Source: a virus
Lineage: Duplodnaviria > Caudoviricetes
Direction: 5' to 3' (one strand)
DNA: 64,000 nt
Virus record (IMG/VR): IMGVR_UViG_3300025723_000013
Within the stretch, counting starts at the first letter, position 1. The number at the start of each line of letters is the position of its first letter. A program made the translations under genes and the position numbers. A model generated the notes under the pieces. That model worked only from the letters and a program-made list of their open reading frames with translations. It did not search any database and was not told the DNA's origin. Shown here piece by piece: positions 51,854 through 57,629 of this stretch.

Positions 51854-51938
51854 TGGTGCCCTCTGAGTGAATCGAACACTCTCTATCTTTCGAAGGTAGC
51901 TTACAAGGCTACTGCCATCCCATTCGGCGCAAAAGGGC
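51854..51938 (-). tRNA. tRNA-Thr(TGT) with long (14-nt) variable arm
   Basis: GCCCTTT/AGAGGGC acceptor, GTAGC-CTTGTAA-GCTAC, CTTCGAAAG hairpin in V loop, CCA encoded. Confidence 0.85.
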
Positions 51939-51948
51939 TTGCGGTTAT

Positions 51949-52164
51949 TTACTCAGGCGTATCCAATGATGTAACCGTTTCCGTAGATGGCGCTTTGTAT
52001 CCAGGTTGTTTTTGCAATTGGATCATGCGCTTACGGATCTTGTGTTTTTCTTTGTTGCTAGCAGTTAGCTTGAGTAGTTCATCCAGTTGACGCATGTTTA
52101 GGGGTCGTAAACGAGCCTTTCCGCTTTTGGTACGCATGGGATCTGCTTTTTGATGCTTCTTCAT
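51949..52164 (-). CDS. Small basic hypothetical protein
   Basis: DP..TK.GK.RL.PLN..QL. Confidence 0.7.
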   Translation of the reverse strand: MKKHQKADPMRTKSGKARLRPLNMRQLDELLKLTASNKEKHKIRKRMIQLQKQPGYKAPSTETVTSLDTPE

Positions 52165-52355
52165 TGTTCTTCACCTTTCTCATCAGCTGTTTTGGCTGGT
52201 TTCTTGTCTATACGAGTTGGTTTGGCAGCAGCATGCATGTCTGCCTGCACCATCAACTGACGCACAACCCCACGTTGATGCGGATCGCGTATAGAAGCTA
52301 GTCTTAATTTTTGCAATCGAGGCATACGATAACTGCGATTTGATTTAATATACAT
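52161..52355 (-). CDS. Small basic protein, paralog of 56598..56771
   Basis: MYIKSNRSYRM...LASIRDPHQRG..R.L.V.AD.HAA. Confidence 0.7.
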   Translation of the reverse strand: MYIKSNRSYRMPRLQKLRLASIRDPHQRGVVRQLMVQADMHAAAKPTRIDKKPAKTADEKGEEQ

Positions 52356-52359
52356 TATT

Positions 52360-53085
52360 TTAATTTCCTTGTAAAGTTTTAAAAATATCGGATCTTGACT
52401 GATGAACAGCGATATAGTTATTGCATCCGTCGGTGCCGTAATTTTCATGAACGAGATTATAGTTTCTAAATTCAACTCTGTCTTTTCTTATTTGACCTAA
52501 TACATAGCCCAATGGGGTCAGTAATTGATAATAGTCTCTCAATTGATATCGTGACAGTATATTGGCAGTTCCGTATTCAAACTGTATGGCTCCAATGCGA
52601 GAAGAATTCAGCATGTTTTGAAAACCTTTTAACACAGCATCTTCCAAACCCTCCACGTCAATCTTTAAGTAATCGATATAGTCTATTTGATTGCTCTCAA
52701 CATAAAAATCGCCACTAACAGTCAAACAGTTTCTCCATTGCCATGGAATATTTGCCACCGTGCCAGGCTCCATATCTATCATGGCGGTACTAAGTGCATC
52801 ATTGACAGCACAATATTTTACCTTTACTGATTGTATGCAATCACTCATTCCAAAATTATTTAAAAATGTGTTGGGATCAATTCCAACATTGAGTAGGCAA
52901 TGTCTAAAGGTTTCTGGAACGATTTCAAAAGAATGTATTGACGCAGAGGGAAACATGGATCTTGCTAGTTTGGTCCATATTCCTTGATTGGCACCCACAT
53001 CAAAAATTGTTTTGATGCCGACATTATAACTATGCAAAGATTCAAGAAGTTGTTGTTCTCCTGATTCTTTAAATTCTTCAAACAT
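52360..53085 (-). CDS. FkbM-family SAM-dependent methyltransferase
   Basis: IFDVGANQG, SFE, IDYLKIDVEG.E..VL.G, IQFEY. Confidence 0.9.
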   Translation of the reverse strand: MFEEFKESGEQQLLESLHSYNVGIKTIFDVGANQGIWTKLARSMFPSASIHSFEIVPETFRHCLLNVGIDPNTFLNNFGMSDCIQSVKVKYCAVNDALSTAMIDMEPGTVANIPWQWRNCLTVSGDFYVESNQIDYIDYLKIDVEGLEDAVLKGFQNMLNSSRIGAIQFEYGTANILSRYQLRDYYQLLTPLGYVLGQIRKDRVEFRNYNLVHENYGTDGCNNYIAVHQSRSDIFKTLQGN

Positions 53086-53106
53086 AAAACTGCCTTCTAA
53101 AAAATT

Positions 53107-53134
53107 ATTATAACAAAACTCTGTTAAATGTCAA
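53107..53134 (-). promoter_or_regulatory. sigma70 promoter
   Basis: TTGACA-16-TATAAT with TGn. Confidence 0.7.
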
Positions 53135-53823
53135 TACAAATTTGTATATAAATTTGGTGGGAATTCGTCATAGTAATGATTTAAATGTGATTGGAAAAAA
53201 TCATACATTTTGGCATTGTTGTGGCCATACCAGGCCTCTGCATCAAATCTATAATCTCGATTATGAGGTATTTGTGGAGAAAAATTAACTGTATGGGGCA
53301 ATTTTAATTTATTGCATTTTTTTAAAAAAGTTGATCTGGTCCAATGGAAATTTCCACTGAAGTGTTTTGGCATTATGTCGTTGTTCATTAAACAACCGAC
53401 TGCATCGTAACCTTCGTTTAATTTTGAAACACAATCTTTCCATCGTGTGATATTAAAATAGTTCATTAACCATCTCCAGTGCTTGGTAGGAGTTTCACAA
53501 TGACTACCTATATGCGTAATACCTTTACAGTGTAGATAAAGAGCTAAAAATTCATTTTCGCTGTGATCGGCCATATCTTTCATTAAATTTAAAGTAGGTA
53601 TCTCAAAATCGTTAGGTATATTTTTTTGTGATAGCCATTGAATATTGGCGCAATTTTTATATTGTTGTTTTAATAAATCATAACTGCTTTCGTTGTAATT
53701 ACAAACCACATAAATTTCAGACACATCTAAAAGCCCGCTGATTTTGATTTCATTCAATTGTTCGTTCACAATGGATGAGAAATGTGGTAAATCTACCGCA
53801 TGATAAAATACTTTAATATTCAC
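53131..53823 (-). CDS. Putative glycosyltransferase-like phage protein
   Basis: FEIPTL, LYLHCKG, WR..M.YF...W..C...L..YD.VG, HFSGNF.W. Confidence 0.6.
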   Translation of the reverse strand: MNIKVFYHAVDLPHFSSIVNEQLNEIKISGLLDVSEIYVVCNYNESSYDLLKQQYKNCANIQWLSQKNIPNDFEIPTLNLMKDMADHSENEFLALYLHCKGITHIGSHCETPTKHWRWLMNYFNITRWKDCVSKLNEGYDAVGCLMNNDIMPKHFSGNFHWTRSTFLKKCNKLKLPHTVNFSPQIPHNRDYRFDAEAWYGHNNAKMYDFFQSHLNHYYDEFPPNLYTNLY

Positions 53824-53935
53824 GGTTGAAAATACTTAAAATTTGATACATTTTTAGGATCCTCTAGTTTCAAATATTTACTCAGATACAAAATTATTTT
53901 GCTAAGAATTTGATATTTTGGAATTGGTTTTTTTA

Positions 53936-55060
53936 TTAAAAAATCACAATATTTTTTTTGAGCCAATCCAGCTGGGTTCTTTGATCTCTCGATTCATACC
54001 ACCCATTACCCTGATGCACATCCAATACCATTTGAAAGTATTCTTCGTACATAAGTGCAACTTTATCAAATAAAAAGTTCTCGGCAAACTTTCTGCAGTT
54101 CTTTGGATCAATCTTATCAATATTTTTTGCTGCCCAGCAGAATTGCTCAAAGGTCCTGCAACGATACCCTGTGACTCCGTGTATATTGTTTTCAGCAAAT
54201 GCTCCCCAATCGGTAGTGATGGTCGGAGTGCCAGATAACAGCATTTCAATCTGTACACCGCCAAATGGCTCCAGATACATGCTGGGAACAAACGCAGCTT
54301 TGGCATGGCTCATCAAATGTTTGCGTTTGGCCACATCGGCATAACCTGTGAACTCCACATGAGGAGGAAATGTTAATTTTTCTGGATTCTGCCCTGCTAT
54401 GATTAATTTGGCAGCGATTGCTTCGGTAGCTTGAACTGCCACTTGAATACCTTTTCCATCATACACTCTTCCTAAAAACAAAAAGTAATCTTGCTTTTGC
54501 TCACGAAATTCAAAGTCATCCGGATCAAAGTAGTTGGGAATCACAGCATCATACCAGTCTTGTTTACAGGTACCAACAGCATCTAATCCATAATACGCAT
54601 GATAGATAGCATAACTTTCAAATATTTTCCAGCGTGCCCAGTGTCCACCTGCATATCCAATGCCGGGTTCTACGCATATCAAATCAGGATGTGCATCACA
54701 AACAGGTCTGACTCCTGATCCCCAAAAAGGCAATATAAAGTCATTTTTTTGTTTGCGTTTGCCAACTTCTTTGATAGCATTAGAATAGAATGTTTGATAA
54801 GCGTGATCGTCTATGTTAAACATATTAAAAAAGTTATTTCGCCAATCATAATCCCCATAAGCCAATTTGAGATCTTGATTGGTGATAACAGTTACATGTT
54901 CACTGCAAACTAAATCGCTATCTTCATGTCCGTAGTGAATGACTTCGTGACCGCGAGCAGTCATCATTTTACCAAATTTAACAACTTTTTGAGTGTAAGC
55001 ACATGCAACATATGCTTTACTGGATACAGTATGCGGTACTCCTAGTATGTGAAATCTCAA
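53936..55060 (-). CDS. GT-B glycosyltransferase (GT4-like)
   Basis: FLFLGR...[11 protein letters not shown]...[13 protein letters not shown]. Confidence 0.88.
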
Positions 55061-56771: not shown

Positions 56772-56792
56772 TTTGGTTCCGCAATTAAAACT

Positions 56793-56877
56793 TGGTGCGA
56801 GTAGAGGGACTCGAACCCCCACACCGTGAGATGTCAGGACCTAAACCTGATGCGTCTACCAATTTCGCCATACTCGC
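56793..56877 (-). tRNA. tRNA-Leu(TAG)
   Basis: GCGAGTA/TACTCGC, TCAGG-TTTAGGT-CCTGA, long V arm, A-CCA. Confidence 0.93.
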
Positions 56878-56884
56878 TCTACTA

Positions 56885-57301
56885 TCACACCGGTGGGTTT
56901 GAATCAGGCTCAACCACTATCGCTGTCACTACACCTGTTTTGTTGTTAACAGCACTGGATGCAGTGGCGATAGTAAATGCTATTTTAGCAGCTGTTTCAG
57001 CTCTCTGCAACAGTGTTTCGGCAGTGTCTTTGGCTTCTTTGGCCGCAGCTTCTGCTACCTTACGTGCGCGATCTGTGACTTCTGCGGCGTTTAACAATGC
57101 AGTTTGTAACATGGCCTTGGCATCTTCCACAGCCTTCATGGCCTGCTCGGCCTCTGATTGAGTAAAAGCCACCAGTTTCTCCAATTCTGATTTGGTATAT
57201 CTTTCTAATTTGGTGAGATCGTGAGAAACGGCGTTTTCAACCGATTCAATCACAGCTTCGACCTGTTCTTTTTCTTTTTTAAAGAGATTGAAAATACTCA
57301 T
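56885..57301 (-). CDS. Ala/Glu-rich coiled-coil hypothetical protein
   Basis: 138 aa, AAGGA SD. Confidence 0.7.
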   Translation of the reverse strand: MSIFNLFKKEKEQVEAVIESVENAVSHDLTKLERYTKSELEKLVAFTQSEAEQAMKAVEDAKAMLQTALLNAAEVTDRARKVAEAAAKEAKDTAETLLQRAETAAKIAFTIATASSAVNNKTGVVTAIVVEPDSNPPV

Positions 57302-57326
57302 GGGTTTTTCCTTGTAATTTATTCAT

Positions 57327-57403
57327 TGGCGCTCCCAACCGGATTCGAACCGGTGTACCCGCCGTGAAAGGGCGGTATCCTAGGCCGTCTAGATGATGGG
57401 AGC
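57327..57403 (-). tRNA. tRNA-Glu(TTC)
   Basis: GCTCCCA/TGGGAGC, CCGCC-CTTTCAC-GGCGG, G-CCA. Confidence 0.94.
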
Positions 57404-57461
57404 ATTTTTATCAAATCTATATTTTTAAAGAACATTGCTATATTTCTTAGCTTAGAAAGAG

Positions 57462-57490
57462 AGTATAGCACTGTCTTTTTATAAAGTCAA
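57462..57490 (-). promoter_or_regulatory. sigma70 promoter upstream of tRNA-Glu
   Basis: TTGACT-17-TATACT with TGn. Confidence 0.8.
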
Positions 57491-57534
57491 TGTTATTTAC
57501 TGTATGTATCATTTTTAAAACGATATCTTGAATT

Positions 57535-57629
57535 TGGTACCTCCGGGTGGATTCGAACCACCGACGCTCCCTAATCTGGGGACATGTGCCGTGTATAAGA
57601 CGGGTGTTTTACCGCTAAACTACGGAGGT
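57535..57629 (-). tRNA. tRNA-Ile(TAT) with 25-nt variable arm
   Basis: ACCTCCG/CGGAGGT, CCCGT-CTTATAC-ACGGC, V arm TCCC-CAGATTA-GGGA, A-CCA. Confidence 0.8.

Follow-up and report, generated by a model that had tools for sequence, protein, structure and literature searches.

Long variable arms on probably functional tRNA-Thr, tRNA-Asn and tRNA-Ile genes of an uncultured giant phage

Three tRNA genes in a phage tRNA cluster

The IMG/VR record IMGVR_UViG_3300025723_000013, a stretch of 64,000 nt that is called the window here, contained transfer RNA (tRNA) genes for Thr, Asn and Ile with long variable regions (51,854-57,629). The window came from an uncultured giant phage of the myovirus type and encoded tail-fibre proteins, a protein of 3717 residues and a ClpA-like ATPase with 41-44% identity to its jumbo-phage counterparts. 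No close cultured relative was found for the window or for its 9-kb tRNA cluster, and BLAST searches with the window Asn and Thr tRNA genes gave no match among cultured phages. ARAGORN called 11 tRNA genes on the minus strand (51854-60012), which Rfam confirmed while adding a weak twelfth. The three genes of interest were called by ARAGORN exactly where the original prediction had placed them, on the minus strand:

51854-51938, minus strand: tRNA-Thr(UGU), 85 nt (ARAGORN; Rfam RF00005, 45.6 bits)
51882-51895, minus strand: variable region of tRNA-Thr, 14 nt, a mini-hairpin of ~2 bp with a GAAA cap
55207-55295, minus strand: tRNA-Asn(GUU), 89 nt (ARAGORN; Rfam RF00005, 46.3 bits)
55235-55252, minus strand: variable arm of tRNA-Asn, 18 nt, a 4-bp stem GAAC/GUUC with a GAAA tetraloop
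57535-57629, minus strand: tRNA-Ile(UAU), 95 nt (ARAGORN; Rfam RF00005, 58.6 bits)
57563-57588, minus strand: variable arm of tRNA-Ile, 25-26 nt, a 4-7-bp stem with a 7-nt loop

All three genes exceeded the curated gathering score of RF00005 (29 bits); in the Rfam scan over the whole window, the fast filters had discarded the Thr gene. The residues U8, A14 and G18-G19, the T loop and an encoded CCA end were intact in each gene. Moreover, ARAGORN drew all of them with the 7/5 acceptor/T layout, and each carried U36, as had been read originally.

Variable arms and D arms

In bacteria, long variable arms are restricted by textbooks and by reviews of tRNA identity to the Leu, Ser, Tyr and Sec tRNAs. 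The long variable regions that the original prediction had described were borne out for all three genes, including the GAAC-GAAA-GUUC hairpin of Asn. A variable region of more than 10 nt that forms a stem-loop, the structural definition of class II, was present in Asn and Ile and marginal in Thr. The Asn arm had a fold energy of -3.4 kcal/mol (z = -3.3 against shuffles).

Thr and Asn also had a common D-arm layout, in which U8-G9 and one extra nucleotide were followed by three Watson-Crick pairs and a GAAUGG loop. Namely, Asn had a 3-bp D stem with the D loop GAAUGGUA, and Thr had a three-nucleotide connector (UGC), a short D stem and the D loop GAAUGGGA. The class-II-like 3-bp D stem claimed for both tRNAs was found as such in Asn; in Thr it applied to the three Watson-Crick pairs, to which ARAGORN added a G-U to draw four. 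Ile had an ordinary 4-bp D stem and the anticodon loop CUUAUAC.

Recurrence in phages and mobile tRNA arrays

We sampled IMG/VR tRNAs by their anticodon loop and T loop, that is, blind to arm length, and kept distinct sequences confirmed by ARAGORN. A variable region of at least 12 nt was counted as long, and all of the sample figures apply among the matches listed. In the anticodon samples, long arms were present in 10/104 Asn-GUU, 6/68 Thr-UGU and 28/65 Ile-UAU tRNAs. When all class I amino-acid tRNAs in the sampled loci were considered, 90 of 1411 were long-armed, and the spread was uneven: 36% for Ile-UAU, 10% for Asn, 10% for Cys, 7% for Thr-UGU and 1.5% (1/67) for Lys-UUU, with none among the listed Asp, Glu-UUC, Phe, Ala-UGC and Arg-UCU/ACG tRNAs of these loci. 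It had been supposed that such arms were not routine in these isotypes across phages, and this held only in part, with frequencies of ~10% for Asn-GUU, 7-9% for Thr-UGU and 36-43% for Ile-UAU. When a structural pattern was modelled on the D arms of Thr and Asn, it matched numerous long-armed phage tRNAs of IMG/VR with Asn, Cys, Lys, Gln, Arg and Met anticodons. The long form was the sole copy of its anticodon in most loci (within the stretch fetched), and the window was the only one of the sampled loci to carry all three long-armed types together.

Two cultured phages had similar genes. Pseudomonas phage OMKO1, which is phiKZ-like, encoded an 87-nt tRNA-Asn with a GGC-GAAA-GCC arm, and Synechococcus phage S-CBWM1 had a long-armed tRNA-Asn of 86-89 nt; both were annotated plainly as tRNA-Asn. 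Phage T5 was considered as another cultured carrier of long-armed Thr and Asn and was rejected, its Thr, Asn and Lys genes being class I genes of 75-78 nt. Our full-text literature searches turned up no account of phage tRNAs for Asn, Thr or Ile with long arms.

A search of bacteria and archaea, with one genome per species (185,579 species), for the GAAUGG subtype of long-armed Asn gave 22 matching places, 14 of which were true tRNAs. Their carriers included Acidobacteriota, Planctomycetota, Verrucomicrobia, Rhizobium and others. Nearly all of the 14 lay within tRNA-gene clusters, and six of these were arrays of 25-33 genes in 8 kb. Thus, the design belonged mainly to phages and mobile tRNA arrays. 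Five contigs of metagenome-assembled genomes from Acidobacteriota and Verrucomicrobia (L547, L548, L556, L564 and L566) each held 25-33 tRNA genes within 8 kb together with a long-armed Asn, and some of these arrays also had a 92-nt Ile-UAU and an 89-nt Lys-UUU. They look like mobile tRNA arrays that share phage designs.

The families sampled in this way indicated how the arm is related to the rest of the molecule. A 3-bp D stem was enriched in long-armed over short-armed tRNAs (p = 0.001 for Asn and 1e-5 for Thr), which suggested a co-adapted core of the class II style and no casual insertion. The sequence and the length of the arm were highly variable within the Asn and Thr families, and GNRA loops were over-represented (12/29 long Asn arms and 5/13 long Thr arms). 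The window Thr had close homologues in loci L536, L540, L542 and L539, and their acceptor and anticodon stems were fully compensated. In comparison to L536, 3/7 acceptor pairs and 5/5 anticodon-stem pairs of the window Thr differed and all were still paired; the D and T arms were identical, and the variable arm differed in its loop alone (GAAA in the window, GUAA in L536, both GNRA). The nearest bodies of the window Asn among the sampled tRNAs were other tRNA-Asn, both long and short.

Another phage contig (L466:3748-3838) encoded a long-armed tRNA-Thr(UGU) whose arm and flanks were near-identical to those of the window Asn, namely UAUGAAG-GAAA-CUUCUUU in L466 and UAUGAAC-GAAA-GUUCUUU in the window. 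Between tRNAs for different amino acids, this arm module may be transferred or else retained in common.

Acceptor identity and codon meaning

The acceptor identities proposed originally, G1-C72 and C2-G71 for Thr and U1-A72 and G73 for Asn, were confirmed in the window and across the long-armed families. The window Thr had G1-C72, C2-G71 and A73 and so carried the identity set of the threonyl-tRNA synthetase (ThrRS; G1-C72, C2-G71, G35 and U36). Likewise, the window Asn had U1-A72 and G73 and carried the set of the asparaginyl-tRNA synthetase (AsnRS), which consists of G34-U35-U36 and G73, with U1-A72 typical of bacteria. Among the long Asn tRNAs, U1-A72 was found in 23/29 and G73 in 27/29, and the corresponding values for short Asn were 94/137 and 120/137. 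The pairs G1-C72 and C2-G71 were both present in 13/13 long Thr-UGU, and A73 in 36/40 long Ile-UAU.

The acceptor end of the window Ile was A1-U72 with A73. The set of the E. coli isoleucyl-tRNA synthetase (IleRS) with which it was compared comprised A73, U12-A23, C29-G41 and the loop G/L34-A35-U36-t6A37-A38. Of these, A73, U12-A23 and C29-G41 were present, while the pair 4-69 was U-A, not C-G. The decoding loop had U34 and C38; G-A-U and an A at the equivalent of position 38 were supplied by the loop of the variable arm only, with a U at the equivalent of position 37.

The identity set of the seryl-tRNA synthetase (SerRS), that is, a long arm with G73 and a conserved G2-C71, was not found in the long Asn tRNAs, where the pair 2-71 was split between G-C (16) and C-G (11). 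The window Thr and Ile had A73 and C2-G71, unlike this set. No Leu signature was conserved in the long Thr tRNAs, whose N73 was U, A or C. Moreover, the 7/5 acceptor/T layout indicated that the window tRNAs were not allo-tRNAs.

The codons concerned made up ~12% of the codons of the phage: AUA accounted for 32% of its Ile codons, ACA for 32% of its Thr codons, and Asn for 7.5% of all codons. In alignments of the window glycosyltransferase with its homologues, AAY fell on N at 160/234 places and on S at 4/234, AUA on I at 78/105 and ACA on T at 39/60. By these alignments, ACA, AAY and AUA keep their standard meaning in this phage. A low level of ambiguity in charging is possible.

The variable arm of tRNA-Ile(UAU)

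The Ile arm contained a second hairpin that resembled an anticodon arm:

57568-57582, minus strand: hairpin UCCC-CAGAUUA-GGGA in the Ile arm, resembling the anticodon arm of tRNA-Ile(GAU); loop positions 33 and 37 are A and U

In a BLAST search, the arm together with the T arm (query 48-84) was 86-89% identical to the anticodon arm and T arm of Felixounavirus tRNA-Ile(GAU). The Felixounavirus anticodon arm read CUCCC-CUGAUAA-GGGAA, and its loop differed from that of the window arm at positions 33 and 37 only. Long Ile-UAU tRNAs and the T5 tRNA-Ile(GAU) had the nearest bodies to the window Ile in the sample.

This hairpin was a property of the family. A 7-nt loop NNGAUNN, with the consensus CAGAUUA, was present in 34/40 distinct long Ile-UAU, where position 33 was A in 31/34 and position 37 was U in 21/34. 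The three loop-closing pairs were always paired and each used 4-5 pair types, indicating covariation. Elsewhere, the GAU-loop motif occurred in 1/224 Ser/Leu/Tyr arms and 2/81 other long arms (Fisher p = 2e-37). Among distinct Ile tRNAs in the sample, 33/91 Ile-UAU were long-armed versus 1/48 Ile-GAU. If the arm had taken over identity, the decoding loop might have lost A38, but we saw no clear difference between long and short Ile-UAU in this respect.

Since the UAU hairpin keeps U33 and A37 and lies one nucleotide after the D stem, it is the decoding arm. It has been reported that E. coli IleRS charges tRNA-Ile(UAU) poorly (PMC3575796), and Mycoplasma mobile accepts UAU by an altered IleRS (Arg865) (PMC3575796). 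The poor charging by E. coli IleRS led us to the idea that the GAU hairpin might serve as a recognition handle for IleRS. In this case, the arm would offer the enzyme G34-A35-U36-like determinants that are missing from the UAU anticodon. We put this forward tentatively, as less likely than not.

Proposed explanation

We consider it probable, at roughly 0.72 and judging from the sequences compared here, that these are cognate, functional tRNAs of a recurrent long-armed design. Namely, three working phage tRNA genes would read ACA, AAY and AUA with their standard meanings (Thr, Asn and Ile, respectively). Each of them would represent a design of phages and mobile tRNA arrays in which a class I amino-acid tRNA gained a hairpin in its variable region. 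The cognate synthetases would probably still charge the long-armed tRNAs because the arm lies outside of their recognition sets. In Asn and Thr, the GNRA-capped hairpin and the shortened D stem may rebuild the core in the class II style, and the benefit could be either the stability of the core or that host nucleases of the anticodon arm recognise these tRNAs less well. For these two tRNAs, core stabilisation or tolerance and anti-nuclease protection seemed to have roughly equal odds.

A more far-reaching version assigned separate functions to the two kinds of arms. Here, the UAU hairpin of Ile would decode and the second, GAU hairpin would be the handle for IleRS, with A33 and U37 disabling the latter for decoding, so that the two jobs of an anticodon are split; the rebuilt Asn and Thr would be armoured against nucleases such as the PARIS nuclease AriB. 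We regard this combination as rather unlikely. If it was true, the phage could read AUA in any host without lysidine.

Several points weighed against these proposals. The Thr arm was marginal (~2 bp with the GAAA cap) and was left open by RNAfold, and the three-nucleotide connector ahead of the D stem was irregular in Thr and Asn. The IMG/VR figures covered the matches listed after filtering by ARAGORN and were no census. With its G73 and 4-bp arm, Asn might be charged to some extent by SerRS, and some charging of Thr by LeuRS (leucyl-tRNA synthetase) was possible given its A73, its Leu-like D loop and nearest bodies that included Leu. With respect to Ile, the look-alike loop had A33 and U37 in place of the U33 and A37 of real Ile loops, and with U37 the IleRS determinant t6A37 cannot form there. 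Additionally, the variable arm points away from the anticodon, and 37/65 sampled phage Ile-UAU tRNAs were without the arm.

Alternative explanations

It was conceivable that the arms are merely tolerated, that is, near-neutral hairpins accepted by AsnRS, ThrRS, IleRS, EF-Tu and the ribosome, with the Ile arm being a left-over anticodon arm of tRNA-Ile(GAU). The occurrence of long arms across many amino-acid classes and their absence where the synthetase reads the core or the variable loop by textbook identity rules (Glu, Asp and Phe) were consistent with tolerance, and so were the widely varying sequences and lengths of the Asn and Thr arms. In addition, the Ile tRNA was homologous to tRNA-Ile(GAU) from the arm to the T arm, as expected of a relic. 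However, a neutral relic should decay, and a pure relic appeared less likely because the GAU loop was conserved while its stem covaried through 4-5 pair types over very different bodies. Similarly, the Thr arm was almost unchanged between homologues with largely rewritten acceptor and anticodon stems. The co-occurrence of the 3-bp D stem with the arm and the over-representation of GNRA loops in the Asn and Thr arms also argued against simple tolerance, and we think it doubtful that it explains the three genes.

A similarly doubtful possibility was that the arm and the remodelled D arm were selected to block host nucleases of the anticodon arm (PARIS AriB, PrrC, RloC and those of the colicin type), the tRNAs still serving in translation. 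Shielding from such nucleases had been one of the ideas of the original prediction. The AriB cut lies between positions 40 and 41 of three E. coli tRNAs, namely Lys(UUU), Thr(UGU) and Asn(GUU); its second subunit reads U16-U17 of the D loop, and infection is rescued by the T5 counterparts of the three (bioRxiv 10.1101/2025.02.04.636281). Thus, Thr(UGU) and Asn(GUU) are on the list of AriB targets. The variable arm branches off only a few nucleotides beyond the site of the cut, and a rebuilt D loop was seen here. Positions 36-41 of the window Thr were UAAGCU versus UAAUCA in the target, with differences at 39 and 41, which are escape positions of T5. The near confinement of long arms to phages and mobile tRNA arrays pointed in the same direction. 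On the other hand, Lys-UUU, the main AriB target, was long-armed in only 1/67 sampled tRNAs, whereas Cys (10%) and Ile-UAU (36%), which are no known AriB targets, were long-armed more often. The window Asn kept UAAUC at 36-40, and no clear depletion of the AriB motif (UAAUC|A) was seen among the long Asn tRNAs. Moreover, T5 escapes with ordinary tRNAs of 75-78 nt, and the AriB preprint makes no mention of the variable arm (bioRxiv 10.1101/2025.02.04.636281). With respect to the species that never carried arms, the pattern fitted synthetase tolerance at least as well as a nuclease shield.

The original prediction had also suggested deliberate mischarging, such as Ser on Asn codons. In this reading, a class-II-like body would make SerRS or LeuRS load Ser or Leu, as a kind of programmed mistranslation or recoding similar to that of nev-tRNAs and allo-tRNAs. 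SerRS and LeuRS ignore the anticodon. This blindness would make such charging conceivable, as would the G73 and 4-bp arm of Asn and the A73 of Thr and Ile. There were also precedents: Leu is loaded onto the nev-tRNA-Ile(UAU) (PMC3333845), and features indicative of Ser identity are found in many allo-tRNAs that have anticodons other than those for Ser, UAU included (PMC5389517). However, the cognate identity sets of the long-armed tRNAs were conserved exactly as in short-armed Asn and Thr, with no Ser signature in long Asn (the split pair 2-71) and no Leu signature in long Thr (the variable N73). The layout was 7/5, in contrast to 8/4 or 9/3 of allo-tRNAs, and within the stretches fetched, most loci had no second copy of the anticodon beside the long form. 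The heavy use of the codons (~12% of the total, with Asn alone at 7.5%) together with the alignment of AAY, AUA and ACA with N, I and T made programmed mischarging with Ser or Leu unlikely, and we dismissed the suggestion as highly improbable.

The least probable reading was that of three decaying pseudo-tRNAs, or of inserts that are introns removed after transcription: the Thr and Asn scores (45-46 bits) were below those of the neighbouring tRNAs, the connector ahead of the D stem was irregular and a clearly degenerate tRNA-like sequence lay in the same cluster (55538-55607), but the universal tRNA features were intact in all three genes and the homologues had compensatory stem changes. In bacteria and phages, the known tRNA introns belong to group I, are hundreds of nucleotides long and interrupt the anticodon loop; those of archaea require a bulge-helix-bulge. 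Hairpins of 9-20 nt at positions 44-48 fit neither type, and an Rfam scan of 51500-60500 found no intron family; thus, there was no sign of the spliced introns against which the original prediction had cautioned.

Other features of the cluster

The remaining genes of the cluster were as follows:

55105-60012, minus strand: the other tRNAs, namely Ser-GCU, Arg-UCU, Gly-UCC, Leu-UAG, Glu-UUC, Ser-UGA, Met-CAU and Gln-UUG (ARAGORN, Rfam)

The complete tRNA set matched the A/U-ending codons preferred by the phage. No synthetase-like gene was found beside the long-armed tRNA-Asn, where the neighbours were a glycosyltransferase, an FkbM methyltransferase, a parvulin and unknowns. We considered the neighbouring glycosyltransferase as a synteny marker of the cluster and rejected it as a widespread module: 394 relatives were confirmed, and almost none of the 60 loci scanned (of 80 kept) had nearby tRNAs. 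The parvulin-type peptidyl-prolyl isomerase gene (58506-58910, minus strand; Pfam Rotamase, E = 2e-21) was located between tRNA-Ser(UGA) and tRNA-Met.

The degenerate sequence at 55538-55607 (minus strand) was detected by Rfam only (35.4 bits) and had no ARAGORN call. It had a CUCCAAA loop of the Trp type, a non-complementary 3' strand of the anticodon stem, and an acceptor stem with two terminal mismatches or a bulge. It was probably a decaying tRNA-Trp.

The tRNA-Gly(UCC) gene (56476-56548) was without an encoded CCA and was overlapped by a plus-strand open reading frame (55744-56523) whose product of 259 aa matched nothing in Pfam. Just past this reading frame, at ~55705-55740, there was a fragment like the 3' half of a tRNA (T arm, acceptor strand and CCA). 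The arrangement has the look of an insertion by which a tRNA gene had its end displaced or duplicated.

Ahead of both the Asn and the Ile gene were a sigma-70-like promoter and a non-coding leader, 150-185 nt long (55296-55508 and 57630-57813, minus strand). Each leader was closed by a long-range helix, which had 9 bp (GUUGAGAGU/ACUCUCAAC) in the Asn leader and 13 bp in that of Ile. The fold z-scores were -1.6 for the Asn leader and -3.0 for the Ile leader, and the two leaders did not align with each other.

Implications

Among phage tRNAs, a sizeable and conserved minority for Asn and Thr, and at least a third of the sampled Ile-UAU, break the textbook rule on long arms while keeping their cognate marks. 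Annotation would be affected, since classifiers based on the type of the variable arm may mislabel such genes as Ser or Leu. The long-armed tRNAs also offer a natural test of the way in which an additional arm is handled by AsnRS, ThrRS and IleRS, and cultured carriers exist, such as phiKZ-like phages. Moreover, the Ile design suggests that an AUA-reading tRNA might be charged without TilS. If the arms do protect against tRNA-cutting defences, they would represent a new principle of counter-defence.

Comparison with known systems

Canonical class I tRNA-Asn(GUU), Thr(UGU) and Ile (e.g., those of T5, 75-78 nt) had the same anticodons, acceptor and discriminator marks, 7/5 layout and CCA, and were likewise found in a phage cluster. 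Their variable region has 4-5 nt, while that of the window tRNAs had 14-26 nt and a hairpin, and Asn and Thr also had three Watson-Crick pairs in the D stem and one nucleotide more in the connector. The long arm was common to the window tRNAs and to bacterial class II tRNAs (Leu, Ser and Tyr), and Asn and Thr additionally shared a D loop of the GAAUGG type and a D stem of 3 bp, which for Thr applied to the Watson-Crick pairs; the Thr body scored close to phage tRNA-Leu. Unlike class II tRNAs, however, those of the window had the anticodons and acceptor identity of Asn, Thr and Ile, their arms were shorter than typical Ser arms, and Ile kept a class I D arm.

The TilS-independent tRNA-Ile(UAU) of Mycoplasma mobile (PMC3575796) was similar to the window Ile in that the same unmodified-type UAU reads AUA and no lysidine is needed. 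In that case, the change was in IleRS (Arg865) and the tRNA remained class I, whereas here the tRNA itself had a second hairpin bearing GAU. The nev-tRNAs of nematodes (PMC3333845) differed in being eukaryotic and charged with Leu through a Leu-type body, and no GAU look-alike loop has been reported for them.

Allo-tRNAs (Mukai et al. 2017, PMC5389517) were likewise found in metagenomes and had long arms together with non-Ser/Leu/Tyr anticodons, with UAU among the predominant ones, and some of the 8/4 tRNA-Ser type occur in phage tRNA clusters (PMC5389517). They had 8/4 or 9/3 layouts, Sec-like D arms and features of Ser identity, in contrast to the 7/5 layout and the cognate marks of the window tRNAs. 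Finally, the anti-AriB variants of T5 tRNA-Lys(UUU), Thr(UGU) and Asn(GUU) (PMC11464382; bioRxiv 10.1101/2025.02.04.636281) were also phage copies of the same tRNA species with changes near the nuclease contacts. Those variants were class I and escaped by point changes at positions 39, 41 and 16 with no arm, whereas the window tRNAs had gained a hairpin.

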